Shown here: in pieces, positions 32,650 to 52,682 of the stretch
Position numbering within the stretch: the first letter of the stretch is position 1
Layout of the letters: each line of letters begins with the position of its first letter
Assembly (NCBI GenBank): GCA_041676845.1
Contig: JBAYRD010000001.1
Location: 31,174-95,173 of the forward strand
DNA length: 64,000 bases
Direction: 5' to 3'
Origin: Halothiobacillaceae bacterium
GTDB lineage: Bacteria; Pseudomonadota; Gammaproteobacteria; Halothiobacillales; Halothiobacillaceae
Program-made: the position numbers and the translations under genes
The notes under the pieces: model-generated
The model's database searches: none
The model's input: the letters and a program-made list of their open reading frames with translations, nothing else
Told to the model about the DNA's origin: nothing

Positions 32650-32673
32650 GGGCCTTCCTCCAGCTTGATTGGG

Positions 32674-33267: not shown

Positions 33268-33813
33268 TCAGAACATGCCGGTGGCGAGCCGGGCCTCATC
33301 CGACATCATCTCGCGGTTCCAGGGTGGATCGAAGACCAGTTCGACTGCCGCTTCCTCGACAGTGGGGATCTGCATGATCTGCTGGTGGGCATCCGAGGCG
33401 ATCACGCCGCCCATGCCACAACCGGCCGCAGTCAGGGTCATGTCCACTTCGACTCGTCGCCCGGCGACTGGCAGGGTCTCGACCTTCACCTTGTAGATCA
33501 GGCCCAGGTCGACGATGTTGATCGGGATTTCCGGGTCGTAGACACCACGCAACTGCTCCCAGACCATCGCCTCGACTTCTTCGTCGGAGGCGTTGTCAGG
33601 CAGCTTGGGCTGCGGGGGCGGCTCCTTGCCCAGGGCGTCGGCATCCTTGCCCTCGATCCGAAGCATGTGGCCGCGCGCCCTGACGGTGAAACTGCCGCCC
33701 AAGGCCTGCATTATCTCGACCGGTGTGCCCTTCGAGGCGAGCACTCGCTGCCCGGAGGGCACCATGGTGCAGACTACGTCACGGTTCAGTTGGATACGCT
33801 CCTTCGGTTCCAT
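33268..33813 (-). CDS. sufT: Fe-S assembly protein SufT (long form, DUF59)
   Basis: VYDPEIPINIVDLGLIY, MTLTAAGCGMG and FDPPW motifs with an N-terminal extension. Confidence 0.92.
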   Translation of the reverse strand: MEPKERIQLNRDVVCTMVPSGQRVLASKGTPVEIMQALGGSFTVRARGHMLRIEGKDADALGKEPPPQPKLPDNASDEEVEAMVWEQLRGVYDPEIPINIVDLGLIYKVKVETLPVAGRRVEVDMTLTAAGCGMGGVIASDAHQQIMQIPTVEEAAVELVFDPPWNREMMSDEARLATGMF

Positions 33814-33834
33814 GATTCGTTCTCCGGTGGTTGG

Positions 33835-35079
33835 TTAGACGAGCATGTCGCGCACGCGGGCGACCGCGGCGACGAACTGGTCGATCTCGCCGATTGTGTT
33901 GTAGAACGCCGCCGAGGCGCGGGCGGTGCCCGCCGGTGCCTCGAAACGACGCATCAGGGGCATCGCGCAATGATGCCCGGTGCGTACGGCAATCCCCATG
34001 GAATCCAGCAGGGTGCCGATGTCGTGCGGGTGCGTCCCGTCGATCAGGAACGAGGCCACTGGCACCTTGTGCGCGGCCTGACCCACGATCTGCAGGCCGG
34101 GGATCTCGCTCAAGCCTTCCGTCATGCGCGCGAGCAGGGCGGCTTCGTGGTGTTCGATCGCCAGCCAGTCGAGCCCGTCCAACCACTCAAGGGCTGCGCC
34201 GAAGCCGATTGTGCCCTCGATATTGGGGGTGCCGGCCTCGAACTTGGATGGCGGCGCTGCGAAACGCACGCCGTCGAAACGCACGTCTTCGATCATGTCG
34301 CCGCCGCCCATGAAGGGCGGTAGACGATCGAGCCAGTCGCCACGCGCGTACAGGGCGCCAATGCCGCTCGGCCCGAACAGCTTGTGGCTCGAGCAGGTAT
34401 AGAAGTCGCAGCCGAGCGCCTGGACGTCAACCGGTCCGTGCGGCGGCCCCTGAGCGCCGTCGACCAGTACCGGGATCTCCTGTGCCTGGGCGATCTTGCT
34501 GATCTGGGCGACCGGGTTGACCGTGCCAAGCGCGTTGGAGACGTGGTTGATCGCGATCAATCGAGTCCGGTCGGTGATCAGATCGGGCAGGGCGTCGATC
34601 TCAAGATCACCTTGGTCGTTGACCGGAATGATGCGAATGACCAGCCCCTTGCGCTCCACCAGCATCAGCCAAGGCACGATGTTGGCATGGTGTTCGAGTT
34701 CGCTGAGGATTACCTCATCACCAGCCTGCCAGTCGACTGTCAGCGAGTGGGCCAGCAGGTTGATCGCTTCGGTGACGCCACGGACGAACACGATCTCGCG
34801 ATCGTGCTCGGCATTGAGCGTTCGGGCCACCTGTGTGCGGGCTGCCTCGAAGCGTTCGCTCGCCCGCGCCGAGAGCGTGTGCACACCCCGGTGGATGTTG
34901 GCATTGTCACGCTCGTAGAACTCGCGGATGGTATCGATCACCACCTGCGGTTTCTGCGTGGTGGCAGCATTGTCGAGGTAGACCAGCGGCCTGCCGTGGA
35001 CTTCCTGGTCGAGCACCGGGAACTGTGCCCGAATGGCCTCAACCGAGAACGGCTGGATACGTCTATCGTCGTTCATCAC
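33835..35079 (-). CDS. sufS: Cysteine desulfurase SufS
   Basis: YLDNAATTQKP, SSHKLFGP and RTGHHCA motifs. Confidence 0.96.
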   Translation of the reverse strand: MMNDDRRIQPFSVEAIRAQFPVLDQEVHGRPLVYLDNAATTQKPQVVIDTIREFYERDNANIHRGVHTLSARASERFEAARTQVARTLNAEHDREIVFVRGVTEAINLLAHSLTVDWQAGDEVILSELEHHANIVPWLMLVERKGLVIRIIPVNDQGDLEIDALPDLITDRTRLIAINHVSNALGTVNPVAQISKIAQAQEIPVLVDGAQGPPHGPVDVQALGCDFYTCSSHKLFGPSGIGALYARGDWLDRLPPFMGGGDMIEDVRFDGVRFAAPPSKFEAGTPNIEGTIGFGAALEWLDGLDWLAIEHHEAALLARMTEGLSEIPGLQIVGQAAHKVPVASFLIDGTHPHDIGTLLDSMGIAVRTGHHCAMPLMRRFEAPAGTARASAAFYNTIGEIDQFVAAVARVRDMLV

Positions 35080-36377
35080 GCGTTCCGTTCACTGCGAGCG
35101 ATCTGCTCGACCAGGCGCTGCTCGACGTGCTCGGTGAGCCAGTCACGCAATTCGACCAGCGGGATCTCGTCGATCACCTCCTGGGCGAAACCGGCGATCA
35201 GCAGGTTGCGGGCAGCGGCCTCCGGCACGCCGCGTGACTGCAGGTAGTACAGCGCTTCGTCGTCAAGCCGACCGATGGTCGCACCATGTGAGCACTTGAC
35301 GTCGTCGGCGTAGATTTCGAGCTCGGGTTTAGCATCGATCTCGGCGTCATCCGACAGGATCAGGTTGTTGCTGGATTGATACGCCTCGATCCGCTGCGCG
35401 TCCTTTTCGATCAGAATGCGGCCCTTGAATATGCCACGACCAGAGTCATCGACGATGGTGCGGTAATGCTCGTTGCTGGTGGTGTCCGCCGCGGCATGCG
35501 TGATCCGCGTGTGGGTATCCAGCACCTGCTTGCCACGCGGCATCATCAGGCCGAACAGATCGGTGTGCGCCCCGGAGCCGCCGACATGGATGTCATATTC
35601 GCGACGGATCATCTGGCCGCCCAGTTGCACATTGTAATTGTAGTAGCGCGCATCACGGTCGAGTTCGGCGAAGCTGCGCTCGGTAGCCAGGCGTGCATCT
35701 CCGTCCAGTCCCAGGGCGATGTGCGTCAATGCGGCATTGGCGGCAATCGACGCGACAATCACGCTGTTGCGCCAGATCGGCTGATCACCGACGGTCTCGA
35801 TGTGTTCGATCAAGGTGGCAGCGGCGCTCTGGCCCAGGCGCACCAGTATGCGCGGGTGGCTCATGACCGATTCGGTCGCCCCGTCCAGCCATTCGATCAC
35901 GATCGGGCGCTCAATGACGGCGCTAGCCGCGACATCGATCACCACGCCTTCACGCGCCATGGCCGTGTTCAAGGTGACCAGGGCATCGTTAGGATTGTCG
36001 ACGCTCGGGGCCGGTTTGGGCGAGAAGGCCGCCACACGACTTGCCTCATCGGCATCCGCAAGGGCGGTAATCGTCACGTCTGTCGGGAGGTCGTCCGGCA
36101 GACCCTGGAACACGCCATCGACAAAACGCAGACGGACGGGGTTCTCCAGCGGCAGGCGGGTGCTGGGTTCGATATCCGCACCGACAGCGCCGGTTGAGGC
36201 GTTGAAGCGCCCGCGCTGGATGGCGCGCAGGTTGGTCCAGCGCCATTCCTCATCACGCGGACCCGGCAGGCCGAGGGACTCGACCTGACTGCGGGCCGCC
36301 CGGGCAACCTCAGCCGGAGCCACCGTCTGCTCGGGCAGGGCAGCGCTCAGCCACTCAGGAAGTTCAACTCGCTTCAT
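35076..36377 (-). CDS. sufD: Fe-S assembly protein SufD
   Basis: EEWRWTNL and KPELEIYADDVKCSHGAT motifs. Confidence 0.95.
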   Translation of the reverse strand: MKRVELPEWLSAALPEQTVAPAEVARAARSQVESLGLPGPRDEEWRWTNLRAIQRGRFNASTGAVGADIEPSTRLPLENPVRLRFVDGVFQGLPDDLPTDVTITALADADEASRVAAFSPKPAPSVDNPNDALVTLNTAMAREGVVIDVAASAVIERPIVIEWLDGATESVMSHPRILVRLGQSAAATLIEHIETVGDQPIWRNSVIVASIAANAALTHIALGLDGDARLATERSFAELDRDARYYNYNVQLGGQMIRREYDIHVGGSGAHTDLFGLMMPRGKQVLDTHTRITHAAADTTSNEHYRTIVDDSGRGIFKGRILIEKDAQRIEAYQSSNNLILSDDAEIDAKPELEIYADDVKCSHGATIGRLDDEALYYLQSRGVPEAAARNLLIAGFAQEVIDEIPLVELRDWLTEHVEQRLVEQIARSERNA

Positions 36378-37129
36378 GATGCCTCCTCGAGAATGTCCTG
36401 GTAGCCCTCGGCCTCCAGGCGCTGGGCGAGGGTCTTGTCGCCGGACTTGACGATGCGGCCCTCGTAAAGGATATGAACGAAATCCGGCTCGACGTAGTTG
36501 AGCAGGCGCTGGTAGTGGGTTACCAGGATGATGCCGCGCTCCTCGTCTCGCATACGGTTGATGCTGGCAGAGACGATCTTCAAGGCATCAATGTCGAGGC
36601 CGGAATCGGTCTCGTCCAGCAAGGCAATCTTCGGCTCGAGCAGCAGCATCTGCAGGATCTCGTTGCGCTTCTTTTCACCACCGGAAAAACCGGCGTTGAC
36701 GCCCCGATGCAGGAAACTGTCGTCCATGTCCATGCTGGCGACCAGTTCGCGCACCTGCTTCATGAATGAAAAGGTATCGATCTCATCGAGGCCTTGCGCT
36801 TCGCGCTTGGCGTTCAGCGCCTCTTTGAGCAGATAGATGTTCTTGACACCCGGGATCTCGACTGGGTGCTGGAAGCCCAGCAGCAGGCCGGCGACCGCGC
36901 GCTCCTCGGTTTCCATCTCGAGGAGATCGTGGCCATCAAAGGTGATCGAGCCTTGAGTGACCTCGTAGCCTTCGTGGCCGCCAAGGACGTTACAGAGCGT
37001 GCTCTTGCCGGAACCATTCGGCCCCATGATCGCGTGGATCTCGCCGGCATTGACGGTCAGATCAATGCCATTGAGGATCTTCTTGCCGTCGATTTCGGCG
37101 TGCAAGTTCTTGATTTCTAGTAGTGCCAT
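36374..37129 (-). CDS. sufC: Fe-S assembly ATPase SufC
   Basis: GPNGSGKST and GFSGGEKKRNEILQ motifs. Confidence 0.97.
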   Translation of the reverse strand: MALLEIKNLHAEIDGKKILNGIDLTVNAGEIHAIMGPNGSGKSTLCNVLGGHEGYEVTQGSITFDGHDLLEMETEERAVAGLLLGFQHPVEIPGVKNIYLLKEALNAKREAQGLDEIDTFSFMKQVRELVASMDMDDSFLHRGVNAGFSGGEKKRNEILQMLLLEPKIALLDETDSGLDIDALKIVSASINRMRDEERGIILVTHYQRLLNYVEPDFVHILYEGRIVKSGDKTLAQRLEAEGYQDILEEAS

Positions 37130-37156
37130 GATGAATAACCTCTGGTATCTGTGCGG

Positions 37157-38641
<1,485 letters not shown>

Positions 38642-38724
38642 GTCATTCTCACCTGGTTAAAGGCTGATTGCCCGGCGGTTGATCGGCCAGGCACTGTTCG
38701 TATCTCGTGTTTAGATCGCATTCA

Positions 38725-39213
38725 TCATGAGAGCGTTCCGCTGCGTGGCCGCTCATGCCAGACCGGTACCTGAGCCATCAGAGGGCGGTCCGTGACCGGA
38801 CGGGCCATGTCGGCCAGCGTAATGGCGTCCATCAGGGCATATACCTTCTGGGTGATCACTCCCCAGTGCGGACGGACCGCGCAGTCCTCTTGCAGAGCGC
38901 AATCATGATCGGGGCGGAAGCAGTCCGTCATCGCGATCGGGCCGTCTATGGCCTCGATGATCTGGGCCAATGTGATTTCGCTGGCCGGGCGGGCGAGGAA
39001 GTAACCACCATTGCGCCCCTGTCGAGATCGGACGATGCTCTGACCGTTGAGCAGCTTGAGCAGCTTGCCGGCCGTGGGCAGGTTGATGCCGGTGCGTTCG
39101 GCCAGCGATCGTGTGTTGGCCCGCAGAGGCTTGAACTCGTCGTCGTGCGGATCATCAGCCAAGGCTGTCAGGAGCACTACCGCGTAGTCGCTCAGTCGAC
39201 TGATCTTCAGCAT
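38725..39213 (-). CDS. Rrf2-family SUF operon regulator
   Basis: RLSDYA, SRQGRNGGY and three Cys (C..C..C..HW); first gene of the suf operon. Confidence 0.9.
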   Translation of the reverse strand: MLKISRLSDYAVVLLTALADDPHDDEFKPLRANTRSLAERTGINLPTAGKLLKLLNGQSIVRSRQGRNGGYFLARPASEITLAQIIEAIDGPIAMTDCFRPDHDCALQEDCAVRPHWGVITQKVYALMDAITLADMARPVTDRPLMAQVPVWHERPRSGTLS

Positions 39214-39305
39214 GCCTGCCTCCGTATATATTGACGATTCGATGACCCGGGCCCAGCCGCCGATTACACTGTTCGGAGGCGGGCCTGCCGGGAGATTTTT
39301 TATAG

Positions 39306-39322
39306 GGTACTAGAATGGTACC
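39306..39322. promoter_or_regulatory. Candidate Rrf2 operator
   Basis: Inverted repeat GGTAC-N7-GTACC about 93 bp upstream of the regulator start. Confidence 0.45.
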
Positions 39323-39505
39323 ACTTGTACAAGGTCCCGTGTGTCAGCTCAAGCTGGCATCGATGCTGGTCTGCCCCCTCCCCGATGCTCCGCCCAAGCC
39401 GTTGTTGTTTCGGCATAAGCCGTTGTCCGGCTTCGATCTGCCGGCGACATCTGCTATCTTTCGCACCCTATTTGACCACGCCGGAATGACGAGGAATTCG
39501 CTCAC

Positions 39506-40936
39506 GTGACGACGACAGCTACTCCTAGCAATCCCAGCACCTCCCTGCCCATCGATGGTGCCGGCAAGCGGCTCTACATCAAGACATGGGGCTGTCAGAT
39601 GAACGAGTACGACTCGGCAAAAATGGCCGACGTGCTCGGGGTGTCCCACGGGTTTCTGCCGGTCGACGAGCCGGCCGAGGCCGATGTGATCCTGCTCAAC
39701 ACCTGCTCGATTCGTGAGAAGGCGCAGGAGAAGGTGTTTTCTCAGCTCGGCCGGTGGCGGCCGCTGAAGGAAAAGAACCCGGATCTGATCATCGGCGTGG
39801 GCGGTTGTGTTGCCAGTCAGGAAGGCGAAGCGCTGCGTGAGCGCGCCCCGTTCGTTGATATTGTCTTCGGCCCGCAGACGTTGCACCGCCTGCCCGAGAT
39901 GGTTGCGGTGGTCGAGGCCGAGCGCATACCGGTGGTCGACATCTCGTTTCCGGAGATCGAGAAGTTCGACAACCTGCCCGATCCGCGCGCGGACGGACCG
40001 ATGGCGTATGTCTCGATCATGGAAGGCTGCTCGAAGTATTGCACCTTCTGTGTAGTGCCCTACACCCGTGGCGAGGAGATCTCTCGTCCGTTCGACGACG
40101 TGATCGCCGAGATCGCCGACCTGGCCGAGCAGGGCGTGCGCGAGATCAATCTGCTGGGGCAGAACGTCAATGCCTACCAGGGGCCGATGCACGATGGCCA
40201 AATCGCCGACCTCGCATTGCTGATCGAGGTGATCGCGCAGGTCGATGGCATCAACCGCATCCGCTTTACCACCTCGCATCCGCTGGAGTTCACCGATCGC
40301 CTGATCGAGGCCTACCGCAACGTGCCGGAGCTGGCCAGTTTCCTGCACCTACCAGTGCAATCGGGCTCCGATCGGGTACTCGCATTGATGAAACGCGGCC
40401 ATACCGCGATGGAGTACAAGTCAAAGATCCGGCGGTTGCGGGAGGCACGCCCGGACATTTCGATTTCCTCGGACTTCATTGTCGGCTTCCCGGGCGAGAC
40501 CGATCACGACTTTGAGCAGACCATGAAGCTGATCGAGGACATCGGCTTCGATCACTCATACTCGTTCATCTACAGTGCGCGCCCGGGCACACCGGCCTCC
40601 AACCTGCCGGACGACCAGCCGGAAGAGGTCAAGAAGGCGCGCCTGGAACGCTTGCAGTCGCGCATCAGCGAGTTCGAGCAGGAAATTTCCCGATCGATGC
40701 TCGGTACCACCCAGACTGTGCTGGTGCTGGGGCCATCGAAGAAAGATCCCGACGAGCTGATGGGCAAGACGGAGAATAACCGCAGCGTGATCTTCCGTGG
40801 CCGGGCCGGGCTGGTTGGCCTGTTCGTCGATCTCGAGATCACGCAGGTCAACCCCAACTCGCTGCGGGGTGAGTTCGTCGCTATCCACCCGACTGATCAT
40901 GAACGGGCACGTGCCCGCAACCTGGTGGCTGCCTGA
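39506..40936 (+). CDS. miaB: tRNA-i6A37 methylthiotransferase
   Basis: GCQMNEYDS, radical [11 protein letters not shown] and TRAM domain. Confidence 0.97.
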
Positions 40937-41895
40937 TGGCCACAAGGGACATCGAGCGGCTGGAGTTCGTTCTCGAGCCGGCCGACAATGAGCGGCTGGC
41001 CAACCTCGCCGGCAGCTTCGACGAGCATTTGCGCATGATCGAACGACGCTTGGGCGTCGAGATCAATCATCGCGGCAATCTGTTTGCGGTGATCGGTCCG
41101 GCCACCATCGCCGCACAGGTCGAAACCTTGTTGGCCGACCTGTATATGCTCAGCGAGACTCAGGTTATCGATCCCGAGCGGATCAATCTCGGCATGCAGG
41201 AGGCGGGCATGCAAGACGCACCACCGCCATCGGGCGACGAGGTGATGATCCAGACGCTACGTGGGATCGTCCGCGGGCGGGGCAACCGCCAGATTCACTA
41301 TCTGCAGATGATTCGCGACTCCGACCTCAACTTCGGCATTGGGCCAGCGGGGACGGGCAAGACGTACCTGGCGGTCGCCAGCGCGATCGATGCCTTCGAG
41401 CGTGGCCAAGTCCAACGCATCGTCTTGGTGCGGCCAGCCGTTGAGGCGGGCGAAAAACTCGGTTTTCTGCCGGGGGATCTGGCCCAGAAGATCGATCCTT
41501 ACCTGCGTCCCATGTACGACGCACTCTACGAGATGATGGGGTTCGACAAGGTCAGTCGCCTGATCGAGCGCAATGTGATCGAGGTCGCACCGCTCGCCTT
41601 CATGCGGGGGCGCACACTGAACGAGTCATTCGTCATCCTCGACGAGGCGCAGAATACCAGCATCGAGCAGATGAAGATGTTCCTGACGCGAATCGGTTTC
41701 GGCACCACGACGGTGGTGACCGGTGATATCACGCAAGTGGACCTGCCCAAGGGCGTCATCTCGGGGTTGCGGCATACGATCGATGTGCTTAGCGAGGTCG
41801 AGGGCGTCCAGTTCACCTTCTTCCAGAGCCGTGACGTGGTCCGCCACCCGCTGGTCAGGCGCATTATCGATGCCTACGAAAGCCGAGGCGCATAA
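40936..41895 (+). CDS. phoH: PhoH-like ATPase (YbeZ)
   Basis: GPAGTGKT, RPAVEAGE and ILDEAQN motifs. Confidence 0.93.
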   Translation: MATRDIERLEFVLEPADNERLANLAGSFDEHLRMIERRLGVEINHRGNLFAVIGPATIAAQVETLLADLYMLSETQVIDPERINLGMQEAGMQDAPPPSGDEVMIQTLRGIVRGRGNRQIHYLQMIRDSDLNFGIGPAGTGKTYLAVASAIDAFERGQVQRIVLVRPAVEAGEKLGFLPGDLAQKIDPYLRPMYDALYEMMGFDKVSRLIERNVIEVAPLAFMRGRTLNESFVILDEAQNTSIEQMKMFLTRIGFGTTTVVTGDITQVDLPKGVISGLRHTIDVLSEVEGVQFTFFQSRDVVRHPLVRRIIDAYESRGA

Positions 41896-41928
41896 ATTGG
41901 CCAGGGTGTCTTGCTGGGGGGTTTCTCG

Positions 41929-42429
41929 ATGACGGCGGCTGCGGTGGCAGTGGTGATCGATCGGCAACGGGTCACCCAATACCGCTGCCCCTCGCGCCAG
42001 TCGCTGACCAACTGGGTGGTACGAACATTGGCCGCTCTGCCGGAAAGTCCAGCGGGCGGCGAGGTCACCATCCGCTACGTCGAGCCGGCAGAAAGCCAGT
42101 CGCTCAACCAACAGTTCCGCCACCAGGACCAGCCTACCAACGTGCTTTCGTTTCCGGCAGAAGAGGATCCTTCGCTGCCGGGACCTCATACTGGCGCGGG
42201 CCTGCCATATCTGGGTGACCTCGTGATCTGTCCGGCAGTAGTGGAGGCCGAAGCAGCCGAGCAGGGCAAGAGCCGACGCGCCCATCATGCCCATATGGTG
42301 GTGCATGGAATTTTGCACCTGTTGGGCTATGATCACCTCAGCAGCGACGAAGCTGAAGTGATGGAGTCTGTTGAGACTCAAGTGCTTGCGGCGCTGGGGC
42401 ACCCCGATCCCTATACATACAATTCTTGA
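41929..42429 (+). CDS. ybeY: rRNA maturation endoribonuclease
   Basis: PTNVLSF and HGILHLLGYDH motifs. Confidence 0.95.
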   Translation: MTAAAVAVVIDRQRVTQYRCPSRQSLTNWVVRTLAALPESPAGGEVTIRYVEPAESQSLNQQFRHQDQPTNVLSFPAEEDPSLPGPHTGAGLPYLGDLVICPAVVEAEAAEQGKSRRAHHAHMVVHGILHLLGYDHLSSDEAEVMESVETQVLAALGHPDPYTYNS

Positions 42430-42514
42430 TGTCCGACTTCTTCGAAATCACCTCGATAGAATGGCGCATCACTTTGATTTCACTAATCTTTCCTACTTGT
42501 TGTAAGACGAACTC

Positions 42515-43420
42515 ATGGTAGACGAACCTCCTGATCCGGACTCGGTGCGTCAGCCGTGGTGGCAGCACTTCAAGCAGCGCTTTTTCCCCTGCCAGATTCA
42601 TTCCATCCGACAGATGAAATCCCTGGTACGCCAGGCGACCGACTCCGAGGTGTATCCAGCTTCCACTGGCGGCCTGATTGACTCGGTGCTGGACTTCCAC
42701 GAACTGCGTGTGCGCGATGTGATGGTGCCGCGTGGGCAGATGGTTGTGATAAACGAAGGGACGTCCTTGCCGCAGTTGCTGTCGACGGCAGTCGAATCCG
42801 GGCATTCCCGCTATCCCGTCATCGGCAGCAATCAGGACGAAGTCATCGGGATTCTGCTGGTCAAGGAGCTGCTGCGCCACTACGCCCAGTCGCAGGAGCC
42901 GGACAGTGGCGAGACGGAATTCAATTTGCTTGAGCTGGTACGAACGCCGATGTTCGTTCCCGAAAGCAAGCGGCTGGATGCCTTGCTGGCCGAGTTTCGA
43001 CTGACACGTACTCACATGGCGATCGTGCTTGACGAGTTCGGCGGTGTCGCCGGGCTGGTGACCATCGAGGATGTGCTCGAGGAGATCGTGGGGGATATCG
43101 ACGACGAGTTCGATACCGAGGAGCGCGTCAATATACGTCAGCAGTCGCCTCGTCGACATACTGTCCGGGCGCTGACCCCGATCAGTGAGTTCAACGAAAC
43201 ATTCGGTACGGCGTTCCCGGATAGCGAGTACGACACCATCGGCGGACTGGTTTCCAATGCCCTGGGGCACCTGGCGCGCCGGGGAGAGGTAGCCCGGCTG
43301 GGCGAGTACGAATTCAAGGTGCTCGGGGCCGACCGTCGCCGGTTGCATCTGTTGCTGGTGACCAAGCTCGATTTCGATCCGAGCGAGGAGGCCGATGATT
43401 CCGCCGGCGAGTCCAGCTGA
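42515..43420 (+). CDS. corC: CBS-domain Mg/Co efflux-associated protein
   Basis: SGHSRYPV, HMAIVLDEFGG, TIEDVLEEIVGDI and CorC-HlyC domain. Confidence 0.92.
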   Translation: MVDEPPDPDSVRQPWWQHFKQRFFPCQIHSIRQMKSLVRQATDSEVYPASTGGLIDSVLDFHELRVRDVMVPRGQMVVINEGTSLPQLLSTAVESGHSRYPVIGSNQDEVIGILLVKELLRHYAQSQEPDSGETEFNLLELVRTPMFVPESKRLDALLAEFRLTRTHMAIVLDEFGGVAGLVTIEDVLEEIVGDIDDEFDTEERVNIRQQSPRRHTVRALTPISEFNETFGTAFPDSEYDTIGGLVSNALGHLARRGEVARLGEYEFKVLGADRRRLHLLLVTKLDFDPSEEADDSAGESS

Positions 43421-44966
43421 GTCGGCCACAGACCCGGTAGTCGAGCGGCTCTATGGCTGGTGGCATGGCTGGTGTGGCAGCCTGCTGGCTCTGTTGGCGG
43501 GGGCGACCCTGGTGCTGGCCTTCGCGCCCTTCATGTTCTGGCCGACGGCCATACTCGCCCCGGCGATCCTGTTTGCCCTGATCCGACACGGCTCACCTGG
43601 CCGGGCCTTCCGTCTGGGCTGGTGGTTTGGCTTGGGCCAGTTCGGCCTGGGGGTCAGCTGGGTCTACGAGAGTTTTACCCTGTTCGGCGGCATCATCGCG
43701 CCATTGGCCGTGTTGGCGACCGCTCTGTTTGTGGTGGCATTGGCCGTCTACCCAGCGGTCGCGAGCTGGCTTGCGGTGCGTGTCGCCGGCAATGCGGAAC
43801 GAAAAGGTGTTTGGGCGGCTGCGTTTGTCGCCAGCTGGGTGTTGGTCGAGGCCCTCAGGGCCTGGCTGTTCGGCGGATTCCCCTGGCTCAACCTAGGCAT
43901 CAGCCAGGTCGACGGGCCGCTGGTCGGCTGGCTGCCCATCCTGGGCGAGTACGGTATCTCCGCAATCCTGCTACTGATGGCGGTACTCAGCTGGTATCTG
44001 GCGCAGCAAGCCTGGCGCGAGCCGACGCGCTGGCGTCGCTGGTCGATTCCACTGATCGCACTCGTTGCCATTCCACTGCTCTCGTTGCCGCTACGCTCCA
44101 TCCCCTGGGGTATGCCGACCGGTCAGGCACTCAAGGTCGGTTTGGCTCAGGGTAACGTTCCCCAGATGCAGAAGTTCGACCCGGCATTCTTCCAGCGGAC
44201 CCTGTCGATCTACGCGGGTCTGACTGCCGAAATGCCCACGGTGGATCTGGTGGTCTGGCCGGAGACGGCTATTCCTCGCATCATCGACAACCTGCCTACC
44301 GTCCGTGCCGAGCTTGAACAGCTGGCCCGTGAGCGAGGTTTTTCCATGCTGCTGGGCACGTTCACTCGAGACGCGGCCGGGCGCTACTACAACAGTTTGA
44401 TCGGGGTGCCGATGATTATCGGCAGCTATCAGAAGCGCCATCTCGTCCCTTTCGGCGAGTACTTTCCCCTCCGCGGACTGGTCGAACGCATCCCTTCTTG
44501 GCTGTTCCAGGTGCCGATGTCGGACTTGAGCGCCGGCCGTGCCGATCAGGTGCCGTTGAAAATCGACCAACTGGCGATCGGTGCCTCAATCTGCTTCGAG
44601 GCCGACTTCTCGCGCGATATTCGTGACTCCCTGCCCGAGGCCGGGATGCTGGTCACGGTTTCCAACGACTCCTGGTTTGGTGACAGCTTTTCACCACACC
44701 AGCACCTGCAGATGGCTCGGGCTCGCGCGATTGAGTATCGGCGACCAATGATTCGAGCGACCAATACCGGCATCTCCGCGATAATTGATGCCTGGGGGCG
44801 GGTAGAAGAGATCTTGGGGACGGGACAGCGGGGAATTCTCGTCGCCGAAGTCGCGCCACGGCAGGGCGCCACTCCGCTGGTCCATCTTGGCGCCTGGCCG
44901 ATACTGTCGCTGATGATCGCTGCGCTGGGGCTGGTCGGATTCCTTGCGCGGCGACGCGCCGTCTAA
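43395..44966 (+). CDS. lnt: Apolipoprotein N-acyltransferase
   Basis: WPET, K..LVPFGEY, ICFE and RATNTG motifs. Confidence 0.96.
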   Translation: MIPPASPAESATDPVVERLYGWWHGWCGSLLALLAGATLVLAFAPFMFWPTAILAPAILFALIRHGSPGRAFRLGWWFGLGQFGLGVSWVYESFTLFGGIIAPLAVLATALFVVALAVYPAVASWLAVRVAGNAERKGVWAAAFVASWVLVEALRAWLFGGFPWLNLGISQVDGPLVGWLPILGEYGISAILLLMAVLSWYLAQQAWREPTRWRRWSIPLIALVAIPLLSLPLRSIPWGMPTGQALKVGLAQGNVPQMQKFDPAFFQRTLSIYAGLTAEMPTVDLVVWPETAIPRIIDNLPTVRAELEQLARERGFSMLLGTFTRDAAGRYYNSLIGVPMIIGSYQKRHLVPFGEYFPLRGLVERIPSWLFQVPMSDLSAGRADQVPLKIDQLAIGASICFEADFSRDIRDSLPEAGMLVTVSNDSWFGDSFSPHQHLQMARARAIEYRRPMIRATNTGISAIIDAWGRVEEILGTGQRGILVAEVAPRQGATPLVHLGAWPILSLMIAALGLVGFLARRRAV

Positions 44967-45033
44967 GAAGGCCCGGCATGCCCGTCCACTTCTGGATGAG
45001 AAACACAGCCCAAATATTTCTTTGTTGCAACGA

Positions 45034-45060
45034 AAAATCCCGCCTGAGAAGGCGGGATTT
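45034..45060. terminator. Terminator between convergent lnt and tRNA-Met
   Basis: AAATCCCGCCT/AGGCGGGATTT stem with A/T tracts. Confidence 0.8.
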
Positions 45061-45087
45061 CTGCTGCCGCCGGGGCGGTCTTGGTAC

Positions 45088-45164
45088 TGGTGGCTATGGG
45101 TGGATTCGAACCACCGACTCCGGCATTATGAGTGTCGTGCTCTAACCAGCTGAGCTACATAGCC
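45088..45164 (-). tRNA. tRNA-Met(CAT), elongator
   Basis: GGCTATGTAGCTCAG...CTCATAA...GTTCGAATCC...ATAGCCACCA cloverleaf. Confidence 0.95.
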
Positions 45165-45234
45165 AAGCAAGGCGCGCATTATCGGGATTACCCATCGGGT
45201 TGTCAACCCAGTCGGCGCGCCCTTTCAGGTCGAT

Positions 45235-46332
45235 TCACACGTTGAAACGGAAGTGCACCACGTCGCCTTCCTGCATGATGTAATCCTTGCCCTCCAGACG
45301 CCATTTCCCGGCATCCTTGGCTCCCTGTTCACCGTTGCAGGCGATGAAGTCCTCGTAAGCGACTACCTCGGCACGGATAAAGCCTTTCTCGAAGTCTGTA
45401 TGGATCACACCAGCGGCCTGTGGAGCGGTCATGCCGCGCTTGATGGTCCAGGCGCGCACTTCCTTCACACCAGCGGTGAAGTAGGTCTGCAGGTCAAGCA
45501 GGTCGTAACCGGCGCGGATGACGCGATCGAGCCCAGGCTCCTCAAGCCCCATTTCTTCAAGGAACATCGCCTTGTCCTCGCCTTCGAGATCGATCAGTTC
45601 GGCCTCGATGGTCGCGCAGACCGGGATAACCAGGGCACCTTCCTGTGCGCCGATCGCGCGGACTTGGTCCAGCAGCGGGTTGTTCTCGAAGCCATCCTCG
45701 TCGACGTTGGCGATGAACATCAGCGGCTTGGCGGTCAGCAAATGCAGATCGTGGAGTAGGGCGAGCTGCTCGGGTGCGAGCTTCATGCTGCGCACGGACT
45801 GTCCCTGATCAAGGACCTCGGCGACCTGTTTGACCAGCTCGAGCGTATTGGCTGCGTCCTTGTTCTGCCCGGACTTGGCCAGTCTGCCGAGCCGTTCGAT
45901 TGCCCTTTGTACCGTGTCGAGGTCGGCCAGTGCCAGCTCGGTGTTGATCACCTCGATGTCGGCGGCCGGATCGACTTTGCCGGCCACGTGGATGACATCA
46001 TCATCGCTGAAACAGCGCACCACCTGCGCAATGGCGTCGGTCTCGCGAATGTTGGCGAGAAACTGGTTGCCGAGTCCTTCACCTTTGGAGGCACCGGCGA
46101 CGAGACCGGCAATGTCGACGAACTCCATGCTGGTGGGGATCACGCGTTCTGTGGGCTGGACGATTTCGGCCAGCTTGTCGAGCCGCGGATCCGGCACGGC
46201 GACTACGCCGACGTTCGGCTCGATGGTGCAGAACGGGTAGTTCGCCGCCTGGATGCCGGCCTTGGTCAGCGCATTGAACAGGGTGGATTTACCGACGTTC
46301 GGCAGGCCCACAATGCCACAGTTGAAACCCAT
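45235..46332 (-). CDS. ychF: Redox-regulated ATPase YchF
   Basis: [16 protein letters not shown] and DIAGLV motifs. Confidence 0.98.
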
Positions 46333-46405
46333 AGAAACTCCGTGATTTTGGTTGCTGAGCGCGGCCGGGCAGGGCGACCGCGTGTCGATTTGGCGACCCG
46401 TCGCC

Positions 46406-46990
46406 TTAGGCGCTAGGTCGGTAGCTGTTGATCGTCTGCCTCAGGGCGGGCTGATCAGCATGAACGAGCTCCGCGGCCAGATGGCGGATCTCGATCACGA
46501 CATCCTCGATCAGGCGTCGATCATCCTTTGGTGGGCTGGTCAGTACATAGCTGACCACGGCATCGCGATGTCCCGGGTGGCCGATACCGATCCGCAGCCG
46601 CCAGAAATCGGCACTCCCGAGGGCAGCCTGCACATCTTTCAAGCCATTGTGTCCACCGTGCCCACCGCCACACTTGAGGCGCATGCGCCCCGGTGGCAGA
46701 TCCAGCTCGTCGTGAATGACGAGGATTTCCTCGGGCGTGATCTTGAAGAACTGGGCCAGCGGGCCGACCGCCTGGCCAGAACGGTTCATGAAGGTGTTGG
46801 GGCGCAACAAGCGCAGGTCGACACCATCAACCATGAGGCGTGCCATCGATCCTTTGAACTTGCGTTCCTCGGCCCAATGCCCCCCTAGGGTGTCAGCGAT
46901 CGCATCCACCGCCCAGAACCCCGCATTGTGCCGGGTCGCGTCGTACTTCGGCCCGGGGTTGCCCAGGCCCACAATCAACTTGATACTCAT
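46406..46990 (-). CDS. pth: Peptidyl-tRNA hydrolase
   Basis: GLGNPG, TRHNAG and GGHNGL motifs. Confidence 0.97.
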
Positions 46991-47042
46991 GGCGGCGGAT
47001 TATCGCATAAGCCTGGTTGATATCAGCGCGGGCCTCAACGAA

Positions 47043-47070
47043 AAGACCCCGATCTTGCGATCGGGGTCTT
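47043..47070 (-). terminator. Terminator after rplY
   Basis: 12-bp perfect stem AAGACCCCGATC/GATCGGGGTCTT with T tract. Confidence 0.85.
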
Positions 47071-47099
47071 CAGTCAGGCGAAGCGCAAACAGGACGGAC

Positions 47100-47765
47100 T
47101 CAGGACTCTTCTGCATCCTGCTGGTCAGTTGGCTCCTCATCGGAGACAACTCCCTCATCCTCGACCGGCTCTTCTTCCTCCACTCGGGGTGGGTGATAAG
47201 CGACTATTGCGACGTCATATTCTTCACCCAGCTCCAACTCTGGAATGGTGACGCCTTCGGGCAAGGTAACCTCGCTCAGACGGATTGTCTCATTGAGGTC
47301 CAGGTCGATGACATCAACCGTCAGGTGATCGGGAAGATGACGCGGCAGGCTCTCGATTTCCACTTCCGTGTAGATCGCATTGAAGATACCGCCGGCCTTG
47401 GCGCCTTTGCTCTCGTCACGATTCTCGAAGAGGAAGGGCACATGCATGCGCATCAACTGACCACGGGTAATCCGTTGAAAGTCGGCGTGCAGCACAATCG
47501 TCTCTTTGTACGGATGGCGGTGCAGGTCACGCAGGATCACTTCGTCGGTCTGGTCGCCGACGTTCAGATCGATGATCTGCGTGAAGAATCTGTCGTCGTC
47601 GAGCCTCTTGAGCAGCTCGTTGTGGTTGATGGTCAGCGAGACAGGCGGTTTGTTGTCGCCGTAGACGATAGCCGGGATTTTCCCTTCGCGACGCAGGCGG
47701 CGGCTCGCACCTTTCCCCAGGTCATCGCGAACGGACGCTTCAATCTTGTATGTTTCTTGAGACAT
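47100..47765 (-). CDS. rplY: 50S ribosomal protein L25/Ctc
   Basis: GKGASRRLRR...PAIVYG, HADF and acidic tail; start trimmed to 47765. Confidence 0.97.
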   Translation of the reverse strand: MSQETYKIEASVRDDLGKGASRRLRREGKIPAIVYGDNKPPVSLTINHNELLKRLDDDRFFTQIIDLNVGDQTDEVILRDLHRHPYKETIVLHADFQRITRGQLMRMHVPFLFENRDESKGAKAGGIFNAIYTEVEIESLPRHLPDHLTVDVIDLDLNETIRLSEVTLPEGVTIPELELGEEYDVAIVAYHPPRVEEEEPVEDEGVVSDEEPTDQQDAEES

Positions 47766-47835
47766 GATCGGGTCCACTCCAGAAATGAAAACCGCCGGGC
47801 GACGACTCGGCCGACCCGGCGTGTGATGAGCGACC

Positions 47836-47855
47836 GTGGCCCGCGACCAGGCCAC
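47836..47855 (-). promoter_or_regulatory. Candidate L25 autoregulatory leader hairpin
   Basis: GTGGCC-TGGTCGCG-GGCCAC hairpin in the prs-rplY spacer; the GGTCGC loop recalls gammaproteobacterial rplY leaders. Confidence 0.45.
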
Positions 47856-47937
47856 AACCGCCGCGCGCCACTTGGATGTCCAAGTGGCGCGCGCAGTATA
47901 CAGGAATTATGTCGTGGCCGGAAGGGCGGGCCGAGGT

Positions 47938-48897
47938 TTATTCATCGTTGTAGAGTGAGCTGACCGATTCGTCGGTGTGTATCCGGCGGATGGTTTCGGC
48001 CAGCATGCCAGCCACCGACAGTACACGGATATGTTTGCAGGATTCAGCTTCCGGCTTGAGCGGTACCGTGTCGGTGACCACCAGCTCATCGAGCGCAGAG
48101 GCCTCAATATTCGCGATCGCATCCCCCGACAGGATGGCGTGAGTCGAATAGGCCACCACTTTGAGCGCGCCTTGTTTTTTCAGGGCATCGGCCGCCAGAC
48201 AGAGTGTGCCGGCGGTATCAACCATATCGTCGACCAGCACACAGGTCTTGCCCTTTACTTCGCCGATCAGGTGCATCACTTGCGAGACGTTGGCCCGCGG
48301 ACGGCGTTTGTCGATGATGGCGAGGTCGGCATCGTCGAGCCGCTTGGCCACGGCGCGGGCCCGTACCACGCCGCCAACGTCGGGCGAGACGACGATCAGA
48401 TCGTCGTATTTCTGCCGCCAGATGTCGCCTAGCAGGATCGGTGAGGCGTAGACGTTATCAACGGGGATGTCGAAGAATCCCTGGATCTGATCGGCGTGCA
48501 AATCAACCGTGAGGATCCGGTCGACGCCGCTGCTTTGCAGGATGTTGGCGACGACTTTGGCGCTGATCGGTACACGAGATGAGCGGACACGGCGGTCCTG
48601 ACGGGAATAGCCGAAGTAGGGGATGACTGCGGTGATGCGATGAGCCGAAGCCCTACGTAGGGCATCGGTCATCAGGATGAGTTCCATGACGTGCTCGTTC
48701 GTCGGATCACAGGTGGGCTGGATCACGAAGACGTCACGACCACGGACGTTTTCCAGGATCTCGATGGCGGATTCGCCATCCGAGAAATGCGTGACCGATG
48801 CTTGCCCTAGTTGGGTATCCAAGCTGTCCGCAACTCGTTCGGCCAGTGGCCTGTTCGCGTTGCCCGTGAATACCATCAAGGAACGTGATAGTGACAT
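47938..48897 (-). CDS. prs: Ribose-phosphate pyrophosphokinase
   Basis: [15 protein letters not shown] and [10 protein letters not shown] motifs. Confidence 0.98.
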
Positions 48898-48914
48898 CGG
48901 TCTCGTCGGTTTTT

Positions 48915-48991
48915 TGGCTGGGCCGGCAGGAGTCGAACCTGCGAATGCCGGAATCAAAATCCGGTGCCTTAACCAGCTTGGCGACGGCCCA
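48915..48991 (-). tRNA. tRNA-Gln(TTG)
   Basis: TGGGCCGTCGCCAAGC...CCGGATTTTGATTCCGG...GGCCCAGCCA; conserved ispE-prs position. Confidence 0.96.
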
Positions 48992-49091
48992 TTCGAAAGA
49001 GGTGCGCATCATAACCAAGGAAGTGGCCTTTGCCAAGCCCTGAGCGCTTTTTGTCAGGAGTTTGAGTGAAATGCCTGCTAACTAATTGATT

Positions 49092-49994
49092 TTAGATTCG
49101 CTTCGCCCCAGCAACTATAAAGCGGCGCAACACTGGGTGGCCCTCGGACAGCTTCTTGCCAATTCGAACGCCGCGTTCCGGCGAGTCCACCGGGGCGAAA
49201 AGGCAGGCGCCGGCGCCGGTCAGGCGCGCAAAGCCCGCCAGAGCTGACAAGTCTTGATGCAGCGCACGCAGCGCTGGATCGTCGGCCAGAACGACTGACT
49301 CGAACGCATTGAAGCTGTCTTCCTGCCACCGTTCACGCAGGAGCTGGTCGGGCTGTTTTTCCGCGTCGCGCTCCAGATTGGGGGAGGCGAACAGACTGGC
49401 GGTAGAGATGATTCGGTCTGGGACGAGTATTAGAAAGGCGGGTGGCACGTCGGCAAGCGGCCCGGGTAGCAGTTTCTCACCGATGCCATGGGCCATTGCG
49501 CTTTTCCCGTACAGGAAGACCGGTACGTCGGCTCCCAGCAGTTTGCCAAGTGCTGCCAGTTCGTCGACCGAGAACCCGAGCTGCCATTGCCGGTTCAGCT
49601 CGAGCAGCACCTGTGCTGCGGCGGCGGAACCGCCGCCGAGGCCGCCGCCGACTGGAACGTGTTTACGAAGCGTGATCCGGGCCGAGCAGACCGTATCGGA
49701 CAGGCAAAATCCGCGGTGTTGCGCCTCGTCGCGTAGCAGCTGGGCTGCACGATAAAGGAGGTCATCTTCCGGCTGTGTCGGTCGGCCGCGCAGGTCTTCG
49801 TCGCCAGCAATCCACTCGACATGAATCACTCCACTGTTGTCGCCGGTTTCGATGCGCAGCTCGTCCCCATAATCGAGCAGCTGAAAATAGGTCTGCAGCT
49901 CGTGATAACCGTCATTGCGACGCCCGTTGATATGGAGGAACAGATTGAGCTTGCAGCCCGCCTGGAGCCATTCAGTGGTTTGGGGGCCGGTCAT
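49092..49994 (-). CDS. ispE: 4-diphosphocytidyl-2-C-methyl-D-erythritol kinase
   Basis: KLNLFLHI, PVGGGLGGGS and GADVP motifs. Confidence 0.96.
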   Translation of the reverse strand: MTGPQTTEWLQAGCKLNLFLHINGRRNDGYHELQTYFQLLDYGDELRIETGDNSGVIHVEWIAGDEDLRGRPTQPEDDLLYRAAQLLRDEAQHRGFCLSDTVCSARITLRKHVPVGGGLGGGSAAAAQVLLELNRQWQLGFSVDELAALGKLLGADVPVFLYGKSAMAHGIGEKLLPGPLADVPPAFLILVPDRIISTASLFASPNLERDAEKQPDQLLRERWQEDSFNAFESVVLADDPALRALHQDLSALAGFARLTGAGACLFAPVDSPERGVRIGKKLSEGHPVLRRFIVAGAKRI

Positions 49995-50668
49995 GGGGCG
50001 GTGCCGCCGAGATTCCAGTCATCAACGATCAGCCGGATGCGCGTCTCGCCACGACGGAGTTCAATAAAATGAGGCAGGCTCAAACCAGTGCTCTCGGTCG
50101 CATACCGTGCGTAATTCAACTCCCATCCCGCCTCGGACAGTCGCAACAGACGGCCTGTCTGATCGAGTTGGAAGCTGTCTGCGGGCCTGTGGGCAAGGGG
50201 AGTCTTGGGCAGGCCGAGTAGCCAATGGGGCAGGGCGGCGAGGGGGATGGGCCAGCCGATCTGTTGTTCGAGCAGCTCGGCTGGGGTGTCGGTCAGGCGT
50301 CGATTGCCTTTTCCATCGGTAATCAGCATGTGATCCGGCGTGCCAGTCATCGCCAGCCGACCGGTATCAAAGGGACCACGCATGGTCAGGGCAGTCACAT
50401 CGCCGACCTGCATCCATTCGAGGCGCACGCTACCGCCCGTGGTCCCCGACTTGATGGCGGCTCGGCCATCAAAGGCCCAGTCGGTCAGCATTTTCAATCG
50501 GCTACTGTGGTCTTCCCAGGCAGCGAGCTGGGCGGGGCTGGCTGGCTCCGGGCCGGGCGCCAGCGAAGCACAACCACCGAGGGTCAGGGCCAGGAAAACC
50601 GAAGCCAGGAGGGTGAGGACAGTGGGTATCGCCTGGGCATGAAGTCGAGTGCGAAACAATGAGGGCAT
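49991..50668 (-). CDS. lolB: Outer-membrane lipoprotein receptor LolB
   Basis: Lipobox LGGC, GWPIP...L..WL.G motif; synteny. Confidence 0.9.
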   Translation of the reverse strand: MPSLFRTRLHAQAIPTVLTLLASVFLALTLGGCASLAPGPEPASPAQLAAWEDHSSRLKMLTDWAFDGRAAIKSGTTGGSVRLEWMQVGDVTALTMRGPFDTGRLAMTGTPDHMLITDGKGNRRLTDTPAELLEQQIGWPIPLAALPHWLLGLPKTPLAHRPADSFQLDQTGRLLRLSEAGWELNYARYATESTGLSLPHFIELRRGETRIRLIVDDWNLGGTAP

Positions 50669-50698: not shown

Positions 50699-52477
50699 TC
50701 AGGGATGGCCGTTTGCTGGCAGCAGTTCCGGGGCGAGGCGATCCAGTGTGTCGATCAGCGTTTGATCGGTCGCATCGATTTCCAGGGCATGTAGCCAGGT
50801 TTCCATGGCGCGGTCGTGTTGGCCGTTGGCCCAGAACGCCTCGCCCAGATGTGCGCCGACTTCAGCGTTGGGCATCTGCTGAAAGGCAGTTTCCAGGGCC
50901 TGGATCGCCTGCGTGAATTTGCCCTGTCGGTATCTGAGCCATCCAAGGCTGTCGAGATACGCCGAGTTGTTCGGGGAGATATGCAGTGCGCGGAGGATCA
51001 GGTCTTCGGCCTCCTCGAGTTGGCGGTTCTCGTCGGCCAGCGTGTAGCCCAAGGCGTTGAGGGCCGCTGCGTGGTCCGGCTCGCGGGCGATGATCTCTCG
51101 CAAGACGGTCATCGCCGCCTGGGAGCGGTCGAGTGCGAACAGGCTCATCGCCTTTTGCAAACGAAAATCGTTGGTTTCCGGCCACGTCTCGATAGCCTGG
51201 TCGGCGATCTCCAGGCTATCGTCGAAACGGCCGGATTCAGCCAGGGTCGAGGCGAGAGCCAGTGTCAGCTGTTGGCGATCAGCCTCGTCGATACCCTCCG
51301 CAAATCGGGCCAGCTCAAGGCCGTTCGCGGCATCCTCGGGGCGCCCGAGCTCCATCCGTGCGGCGGCGAGAAGCACTTGGGCGTTGGCAAAATGCTCGCT
51401 GCGGGTGCTGACCTGAGAGAATGCGTTTTCCGCCGCGATCAGCTCCCCGTCTTGCAAGGCAACCCGTCCTCGGATCAACAGCACTACGTCCATCTGGCCC
51501 GGCATGGCTTCCAGCTGCCGCAGGGCCCGCTGTGCGAGGGTGGGGCGTTCGAGTTGGTAACCGAACAACGCCAGATTGCGCAGCAGCTTGGGGTCTGACG
51601 GCTTGTTGGCGAGAGTGCGCTCCAGAAGGGCTGCCGCCGCTTCCAGTTGCCCGGCCGCAATGCGTGCCTCGATCAGACCGCTGATGTAGCGACCTTCGTT
51701 GGGAAAGCGAGCATAGGCCTTTTCCAGGACCCCGAGGACGTGTTTGATGTCGCCACGATGATTCGCAATAACCATTGCCAAGTCGTATGGCGCGGTCTCG
51801 TCCGGGCGCAGCGACATGGCCCGTTCGGCTGCCCGTTGTGCCAGCTCCATTTCCTTGAACGATAGCGCCAGCTTGGCCACGACCGTCTGCGCGTAATACT
51901 GCTGGGGAAACCGTTCGGCCAGATGATGTGTGTAGGCGACGGCACGGTCACGCGCGAGGCTATTCTGCAGGTACTGGCCGGTTTCGTTGAAGATCTGTTC
52001 GACATTGCCCGAGTCCGCTTCCAGCCATTGGTTCAGTGCGAGATCGGCCTCATCAGTCTGGCCGAGCTCGAGCGAAGCAATCATCATCACGGCTGCTGCG
52101 CGGGCATTGCCGGGATCGGCTTCACGCAGACGATCGGCAAGTTGCTGGGCGAGATCGAATCGTTCGGCAAAAATCGCCGCCTGGATGGCCCGTTCGAGCA
52201 CGGCGACGTTGTCACTTTCCAGGGCGACCTGCGCGTAATGATCAGCCGCCTGGTCATATTGCTTGTCTCGACCATAGAGCTCGCCTGCCAGGATGTGAAA
52301 GATCGAGCCATCCGATCCACTCAGGCGCCCCCCATCGACTTCCATCTGTGTGTTGGCATTGTTGTCGGCATGACCATTGCCGTGGGGCGACCCGGCCGTC
52401 CCGCTGACGGCGCAACCGGACAGCACCAAGGCAAGTGTTATTCCGAACATCAGAGCGGCAGAGGAGATCGGTCGCAT
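50699..52477 (-). CDS. TPR-repeat lipoprotein
   Basis: Lipobox LSGC, ALNALGYTLAD and YLDSLGW TPR motifs; conserved upstream of lolB. Confidence 0.9.
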   Translation of the reverse strand: MRPISSAALMFGITLALVLSGCAVSGTAGSPHGNGHADNNANTQMEVDGGRLSGSDGSIFHILAGELYGRDKQYDQAADHYAQVALESDNVAVLERAIQAAIFAERFDLAQQLADRLREADPGNARAAAVMMIASLELGQTDEADLALNQWLEADSGNVEQIFNETGQYLQNSLARDRAVAYTHHLAERFPQQYYAQTVVAKLALSFKEMELAQRAAERAMSLRPDETAPYDLAMVIANHRGDIKHVLGVLEKAYARFPNEGRYISGLIEARIAAGQLEAAAALLERTLANKPSDPKLLRNLALFGYQLERPTLAQRALRQLEAMPGQMDVVLLIRGRVALQDGELIAAENAFSQVSTRSEHFANAQVLLAAARMELGRPEDAANGLELARFAEGIDEADRQQLTLALASTLAESGRFDDSLEIADQAIETWPETNDFRLQKAMSLFALDRSQAAMTVLREIIAREPDHAAALNALGYTLADENRQLEEAEDLILRALHISPNNSAYLDSLGWLRYRQGKFTQAIQALETAFQQMPNAEVGAHLGEAFWANGQHDRAMETWLHALEIDATDQTLIDTLDRLAPELLPANGHP

Positions 52478-52654: not shown

Positions 52655-52682
52655 ACTTCGCGGAATATATATTATGTTAAAT
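52655..52682 (+). other. dif: dif-like XerC/XerD recombination site
   Basis: ACTTCGCGGAA-TATATA-TTATGTTAAAT: 11-6-11 layout, XerD arm identical to E. coli dif, XerC arm with GG in place of AT. Confidence 0.75.

Follow-up and report, generated by a model that had tools for sequence, protein, structure and literature searches.

The variable arm of bacterial dif sites is the XerC arm, more so than the XerD arm and in all phyla, while the inner parts of both arms are the most conserved (PMC2731167, PMC3025954). Counted as strings in the table of predicted dif sites of Kono et al. 2011 (PMC3025954), the inner XerC arm CGCATAA occurs 215 times and CGTATAA 35 times, followed by CGCAGAA (4), CGTGTAA (2), and CGTAGAA (1), with no occurrence of CGCGGAA or CGTGGAA. 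Inner arms of the GAA or GGAA type make up about 5 of the several hundred predicted sites in that table. The predicted dif of D. nodosus VCS1703A (TATTCGCAGAA TGCATA TTATGTTAAAT), with its CGCAGAA, lies at a distance of 0.3% of the genome length from the skew shift; for the predicted dif of P. fluorescens Pf0-1, with CGTGTAA, the distance is 0.001% (PMC3025954). There are no CGCAGAA or CGCGGAA arms in the supplements of Carnoy & Roten (PMC2731167).

Departures from CATAA at XerC-arm positions 7-9 are seen in sites that do recombine. The plasmid sites psi (pSC101, GGTGCGCGCAA) and cer (ColE1, GGTGCGTACAA) are recombined by XerCD, with ..GCGCAA and ..GTACAA respectively, and the dif of B. subtilis (ACTTCCTAGAA TATATA TTATGTAAACT, recombined by CodV/RipX; sequence confirmed in PMC3025954 and PMC2410131) is functional with ..CTAGAA, despite differences at the same positions. 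Unlike a chromosomal site, psi and cer are plasmid-borne, depend on accessory sequences and proteins, are recombined XerC-first and independently of FtsK, and mark no chromosome terminus (PMC5357621). A further class of dif-like 28-mer, with one good and one deviant arm, is found at the sites and scars of Xer-exploiting mobile elements (IMEX) such as CTXphi, TLCphi, and the gonococcal GGI. In these it is the XerD arm that diverges, the XerC arm and the centre agreeing with the host dif (PMC5357621), and the sites come as pairs flanking the element.

A dif-like site in the fimV/TPR gap

The window, that is the whole 64-kb stretch of DNA analysed here, is from an uncultured relative of Guyparkeria (Halothiobacillaceae), the DNA of which occurs in metagenomes of landfill, compost, fertilizer, and soil. 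A 539-kb ENA contig and the NCBI MAG GCA_035459685.1 carry the same DNA, and the nearest named Asd proteins, at 83-87% identity, are from Guyparkeria and the Halothiobacillaceae. The features of the window are listed in Table 1, together with those of the other loci and the dif alleles discussed below.

Table 1. Features of the window and of related loci. Positions are those of the window unless another locus is named.
Feature	Position	Strand	Sequence	Remark
Complete candidate dif, 28 bp	52655..52682	+	ACTTCGCGGAATATATATTATGTTAAAT	11-6-11; read directly from the window
Presumed XerC arm	52655..52665	+	ACTTCGCGGAA	assigned by homology of layout only
Central strand-exchange hexamer	52666..52671	+	TATATA	palindromic; equals the B. 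subtilis dif spacer
Presumed XerD arm	52672..52682	+	TTATGTTAAAT	equals the E. coli dif arm
KOPS-like motifs left of the site	9523..50235		GGGNAGGG	nine on +, pointing to the site, against three on -
KOPS-like motifs right of the site	56650..59196		GGGNAGGG	four on -, pointing to the site, none on +; a fifth in the 3 kb extension from L001
TPR-repeat lipoprotein-like gene, left neighbour	50699..52477	-		start follows the 592-aa gene call in L001
Conserved non-coding DNA in place of DUF6231 gene	52683-53270			~590 bp; also in L004
Decayed tRNA-Leu-like copy	52750-52830	+		~70-150 bp right of the site
tRNA-Leu(CAG) gene	53271-53355	+		right of the site
Hairpins downstream of tRNA-Leu(CAG)	53458-53470; 53586-53625			
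fimV/hubP-family gene, right neighbour past tRNA-Leu	53683..56025	-		780-aa gene call from L001
recC-recB-recD operon	16666-26410	-		1202, 1265, and 781 aa; 26-36 kb from the site
MoxR-type AAA ATPase	15158-16168			downstream of recCBD
ORF with no Pfam match	14159-15109			downstream of recCBD
TgpA-like transglutaminase	12186-14162			downstream of recCBD
Low-G+C stretch	26000-32000			G+C 0.545-0.58, against ~0.61-0.65 around it
DsrE-like ORF	27007-27591	+		in the low-G+C stretch
SulP/STAS transporter	27683-29554	-		in the low-G+C stretch
247-aa ORF with no Pfam match	30329-31072	-		in the low-G+C stretch
DUF6231 gene, L104	13755-14267			
DUF6231 gene, L105	13747-14250			
DUF6231 gene, L107	13701-14207			
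DUF6231 gene, L108	13820-14347			
XerD homolog, L017 (Rappaport israeli NZ_LXHZ01000018.1)	2739-3602			53% identical to E. coli XerD
GAA-type dif-like site, L017	6396-6423		ATTTCGCAGAA TGTATA TTATGTTAAAT	~3 kb from the XerD homolog
GAA-type site, L019 (Methylococcales MAG)	3788-3815			spacer GTGGGG
GAA-type site, L020 (Acinetobacter guillouiae)	1134-1159	-		spacer CGCCCA
Window allele			ACTTCGCGGAA TATATA TTATGTTAAAT	
L004 allele			ACTTCGCAGAA TATATA TTATGTTAAAT	
L105 allele			ACTTCGTGGAA TATATA TTATGTTAAAT	
L104 (G. hydrothermalis) allele			TGTTCGTAGAA TATATA TTATGTTAAAT	
L108 allele			CTTGCGCAGAA TACATA TTATGTTAAAT	
L107 allele			ATGTCGTGTAA TATATA TTATGTTAAAT	
L110/L111 allele			GTGTCGTATAA TATATA TTATGTTAAAT	

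The initial annotation had described an 11-6-11 dif layout with a right arm exactly that of E. coli and with inner XerC bases, normally ATAA, that are not canonical. All of this is confirmed, the last point by the counts of Kono et al. given above. Identity to E. coli dif (GGTGCGCATAA TGTATA TTATGTTAAAT) is 22/28, with 11/11 in the XerD arm, 5/6 in the spacer, and 6/11 in the XerC arm, where the differences are at positions 1, 2, 4, 8, and 9. At positions 8-9 the canonical AT is replaced by GG, so that the inner arm reads CGGAA, and the inner dyad is reduced, with 3/6 inner positions mirroring the XerD arm compared to 5/6 in E. coli (CATAA / TTATG type). Like E. coli dif, the site is intergenic and AT-rich (25% G+C, against 61% for the window), and is associated with a skew shift and converging GGGNAGGG motifs; unlike it, this candidate dif has a palindromic spacer.

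By one position, the site is closer to B. subtilis dif (23/28) than to E. coli dif, sharing with it the outer ACTTC, the inner GAA, and the spacer. The XerD-type arm of B. subtilis dif is nevertheless that of a Firmicute, and this is a site of another phylum, with other recombinases and another translocase mode (PMC5357621). The predicted D. nodosus dif shares the exact XerD arm and, in its XerC arm, the G at position 9. The window arm adds a G at position 8, a feature that the 2011 catalogue lacks (Kono et al., PMC3025954).

The XerD arm has a single match in the window on both strands with one mismatch allowed, where shuffled sequences give 0.10; by base composition about 0.003 exact copies would be expected per window, and 1 is observed. 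No other 28-mer on either strand of the window exceeds 17-18/28 to E. coli dif or to the site itself, and the best of these weaker matches is the site's own reverse strand. The site is also unique when the 64-kb window is extended by 3 kb.

To the left of the site, all on the - strand, is the cluster TPR-lolB-ispE-(tRNA-Gln)-prs-rplY-pth-ychF, with genes for tRNA-Met and tRNA-Gln nearby. The TPR gene is the first of this cluster, and the site is upstream of it, 177 bp from its start. When the longest GTG start was used for the TPR gene, an exact-protein look-up gave no match; Asd and YchF did match. To the right, beyond the + strand tRNA-Leu(CAG) gene, is fimV-asd-leuB-leuD-leuC on the - strand. 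The site is thus intergenic, within the 1.2-kb fimV/TPR gap, which is taken to be non-coding because the lengths of the indels relative to the diverged locus L004 are not divisible by 3. Housekeeping genes, including recBCD, suf, znuABC, and a moxR/transglutaminase cluster, account for the other large ORFs scanned in the window, and there are no integrase, phage, or Xer genes among these ORFs. No XerC or XerD homologs were found in the window by tblastn, and ftsK is also outside it. Rfam identifies three tRNAs in the window and has no match at the site.

Some other features of this region can be mentioned. The tRNA-Leu(CAG) gene is transcribed away from the site. It is preceded by a promoter-like TTGACA...TAATAT and followed by hairpins, and metagenome assemblies break at this gene and nowhere else. 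Between it and the site is a decayed tRNA-Leu-like copy, which aligns with the gene at 81% identity over 31 nt (52781-52811 against 53309-53339), more weakly further out, and which is not called by ARAGORN or Rfam. L004 shares this copy and the Guyparkeria relatives lack it; it could stem from an old tandem duplication of the tRNA, or be what remains of the attachment site of an element that integrates at tRNA genes. In the Guyparkeria-group relatives a DUF6231 gene (167-175 aa) is present between tRNA-Leu and dif. It is absent from the window lineage and from L004, where there is conserved non-coding DNA in its place; that this DNA is a decayed DUF6231 gene was rejected, there being no tblastn signal. 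The gap in L104 holds an extra 208-aa ORF, which has no Pfam match. Further from the site, the window carries a recCBD operon and a stretch of low G+C; the latter may be a horizontally acquired patch.

Replication polarity at the site

The cumulative GC skew of the window climbs to 52-53 kb and falls after it. A two-segment likelihood model of the G/C change, applied to the window plus 3.1 kb of identical sequence taken from L001, has its maximum likelihood change-point at 52,810, with a gain over no change of 9.1 log units. The site is within the 2-log-likelihood support interval of 50,710-54,340, an interval that is wide (~3.6 kb) because there is only 11-14 kb of sequence to the right of the site.

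The motif GGGNAGGG, which is the KOPS of gammaproteobacteria, converges on the same position. The ratio of + to - strand copies is 9:3 to the left and, with the extension included, 0:5 to the right (Fisher p = 0.009), and for the 7-mer GGGNAGG it is 25:12 to the left compared to 0:8 to the right (p = 0.0006). In an unbiased scan of all 7-mers for polarity reversal, the KOPS core GGCAGGG ranks first (20:7 against 0:8), by a p-value uncorrected for how many words were compared.

These flips are not a coding-strand effect, since the - strand carries about 80% of the coding bases to the left of the site and likewise to the right. Third-codon-position skew mostly reflects codon usage (C3 > G3 in coding strands) and so tracks the strand of the genes rather than the direction of replication. 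It has no significant flip in the window and was dropped as a replication signal, and gene orientation was instead controlled through a comparison of the same strand at all positions. For the - strand genes the coding-strand skew is -0.033 to the left and +0.014 to the right (base-level p = 0.0017; gene-level Mann-Whitney p = 0.008), and it flips also in L104 (+0.048 / -0.051, p = 2e-5) and L105 (+0.026 / -0.051, p = 0.002). That the skew of the same strand flips while gene orientation does not change means that the replication-associated polarity switches at the site and that the transcription polarity does not.

It had been cautioned that prs and rplY, to the left, are transcribed away from the site and would be head-on to replication if this were the terminus. 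This is factually correct, both being on the - strand; over the 52 kb on this side of the terminus, the lagging strand carries about 80% of the coding bases, with rplY, prs, pth, recBCD, and suf among its genes. As an objection it is weak and does not discriminate, since E. coli K-12 is comparable, with a ychF-pth-prs-ispE-lolB cluster on the - strand at 1.256-1.263 Mb, which, given the known positions of oriC and dif, we take to be the lagging strand of the right replichore.

Orthologous sites in the Guyparkeria group

The gene order around asd is conserved in the relatives as leuCDB-asd-fimV-tRNA-Leu-(DUF6231)-dif-TPR-lolB-ispE-prs-rplY-pth-ychF. There is a dif site in the same fimV...TPR gap of every Guyparkeria-group relative for which the gap was recovered, giving seven alleles (Table 1). 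The 28-mer is identical in L001-L003 and L005-L007, and matches at 27/28 in L004, where the flanks have diverged. Outside the trio of the window, L003, and L004, the 20 nt on either side of the site have no resemblance between clade members, and a 19-nt core is conserved in relatives with flanks that are otherwise unalignable.

The XerD arm is invariant in all seven alleles and the spacer is TATATA in six, with TACATA in L108. The XerC arm is invariant at positions 5, 6, 10, and 11, and differs between the alleles at positions 1-4 and 7-9. Position 7 is C or T, position 8 is A or G, and position 9 is G or T (Y-R-K), with G at position 9 in 5/7. This makes six inner arms, CGCGGAA, CGCAGAA, CGTGGAA, CGTAGAA, CGTGTAA, and CGTATAA, among species with Asd proteins that are 83-100% identical, beside a frozen spacer and XerD arm.

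The locus of the outgroup L112 (Asd 77% identity) has the order fimV-truA-trpFBA-accD-folC and no dif-like site, so the dif-bearing junction is specific to the clade. A scan of metagenome contigs with Asd recovered only relatives at 74% identity or below, none of which has a dif-like site near asd, so the synteny does not reach beyond the Guyparkeria group.

Similar arms in other lineages

In a scan of 185,579 GTDB species representatives, the pattern TTCGCNGAA-N6-TTATGTTAAAT was found in 14 genomes: four Halomonas, four Dichelobacter/Cardiobacteriaceae, two Ectothiorhodospiraceae MAGs, and others. CGCGGAA is present in 4/14, among them L016, with an arm identical to that of the window, and L011 and L012. 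Most of the 14 loci are at a + to - skew switch, with a pooled GGGNAGG ratio of 19:6 to the left and 4:39 to the right; the three other plausible CGCGGAA sites are included among these converging loci. The gene context of the window is shared by none of the 14, which are independent lineages and not relatives. The sites in Halomonas, the Cardiobacteriaceae, and the Ectothiorhodospiraceae MAGs resemble that of the window in being gammaproteobacterial and terminus-like, with a G at position 9 and the exact XerD arm. They differ from it, as does that of D. nodosus, in belonging to unrelated lineages, in having other gene contexts, and in having mostly TGTATA-type spacers.

In Rappaport israeli a homolog of XerD is encoded close to the GAA-type site (Table 1). 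The spacers of 2/14, in a Methylococcales MAG (L019) and in Acinetobacter guillouiae (L020), are atypical and G+C-rich, and the local polarity signals there are weak; rather than being chromosomal dif, these two sites may be of the pdif or IMEX type.

A probable chromosomal dif with a drifting XerC arm

The initial annotation had left two readings of this sequence, the chromosome dimer-resolution site of a lineage with altered XerC specificity or a degenerate or hybrid IMEX site, and it is the first, apart from the altered specificity, that the data support. The fact that the site is at the polarity switch of both skew and KOPS, is AT-rich and intergenic, and is conserved at the orthologous position throughout the Guyparkeria group supports its identification as a chromosomal dif. 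It is highly likely that this is the functional dif of an uncultured Guyparkeria-related gammaproteobacterium, and that the GG represents drift tolerated within the clade and not the scar of a mobile element. Judged from the alleles, the GG at positions 8-9 is very probably one state of a drifting Y-R-K triplet at positions 7-9, a rare but natural variant, and drift at these positions is evidently tolerated by the system.

By analogy with E. coli, FtsK would translocate along the converging GGGNAGGG motifs to the site. XerD would sit on the invariant right arm and XerC on the left arm, probably more weakly and aided by cooperativity with XerD. Activation of XerD by FtsK would then lead to exchange of the first pair of strands across TATATA, and exchange of the second pair by XerC would resolve chromosome dimers.

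A different explanation, which accepts the site as chromosomal dif, is that the XerC of this clade has a genuinely changed DNA recognition that has co-evolved with arm positions 7-9. The rarity of GAA and GGAA inner arms, both in the table of Kono et al. and among the species representatives, where they were sought in the exact arm frame, would be consistent with this, as would the G at position 9 in most of the clade alleles. One shifted specificity would, however, predict one conserved new arm. There are instead six inner arms in close relatives, including the canonical CGTATAA (L110/L111) and CGTGTAA (L107). That canonical and deviant arms occur side by side among close relatives suggests relaxed constraint, or tolerance, rather than a single new fixed specificity of XerC, which is considered unlikely. 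It is also considered unlikely that XerC recognition of positions 7-9 in the Guyparkeria clade is itself unusually relaxed, or is rapidly co-evolving. In a wilder version of this proposal, the XerC arm would be overwritten periodically by transient IMEX integration and loss.

The second reading of the initial annotation was of a hybrid or relic of an IMEX, with the XerC arm from the attP of the element and the XerD arm from the host. From the mechanism described in PMC5357621, a site that keeps the host XerD arm after integration does carry an XerC arm derived from the element, and the gap has been remodelled in the window lineage, with loss of the DUF6231 gene and a decayed tRNA-Leu copy beside the site. 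The element would be expected on the left, the side of the XerC arm, bounded by a second dif-like site. Here, on the left, 177 bp of non-coding DNA separates the site from the TPR-lolB...ychF cluster, which is syntenic in all of the relatives, and no second dif-like site exceeding 17-18/28 is present in the 52 kb on the left or the 14 kb on the right. The flanking genes on each side are housekeeping ones in synteny with the relatives, with none of the genes of an element among the ORFs scanned. In four independent metagenomes, Logan contigs run through the site with no joints or loose ends, although this is a weak test, as contigs show presence and not absence. In the viral contigs scanned for the XerC arm and spacer there is no matching phage attP; the matches that were found (6) are attributed to chance, being in contigs of 36-50% G+C and having no XerD-like arm. 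The polarity is also the reverse of that expected, known IMEX sites being degenerate in the XerD arm (PMC5357621), and the position of the site at the polarity switch and the graded series of arm variants among the relatives likewise point away from a mobile element. Since no second site in this range, element genes among the ORFs scanned, assembly polymorphism, or phage attP was found, and since the deviant arm is the wrong one, an IMEX origin is unsupported and very improbable.

A last reading has the resemblance to dif arise by chance, in an AT-rich sequence or in a promoter element of the TPR operon. The site is intergenic, as AT-rich promoter elements are, and the TPR start is 177 bp downstream of it, but this reading is effectively refuted, and has next to no probability, given how few exact XerD arms are expected per window, the 19-nt core kept between unalignable flanks, and the coincidence with the skew and KOPS switches.

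Implications

The kind of dif described here is already known, including the GAA-type arm listed for D. nodosus (Kono et al. 2011), and what is new is a rare allele of the arm. Its main use is in annotation, as a marker of the replication terminus in an uncultured Guyparkeria-like genome and also in G. hydrothermalis, there at ~597.4 kb of contig JAJSED010000001.1. Tools that find dif using HMMs or a consensus should tolerate G at XerC-arm positions 8-9. The fixed right arm fits the established view that the interaction of XerD with FtsK constrains it, and opens no new question. The alleles of the clade form a modest natural dataset of a drifting XerC half-site beside a fixed XerD half-site. 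Were recognition by XerC in this clade indeed relaxed or co-evolving, these alleles would make up a natural series in which to map the contacts between XerC and DNA that matter.
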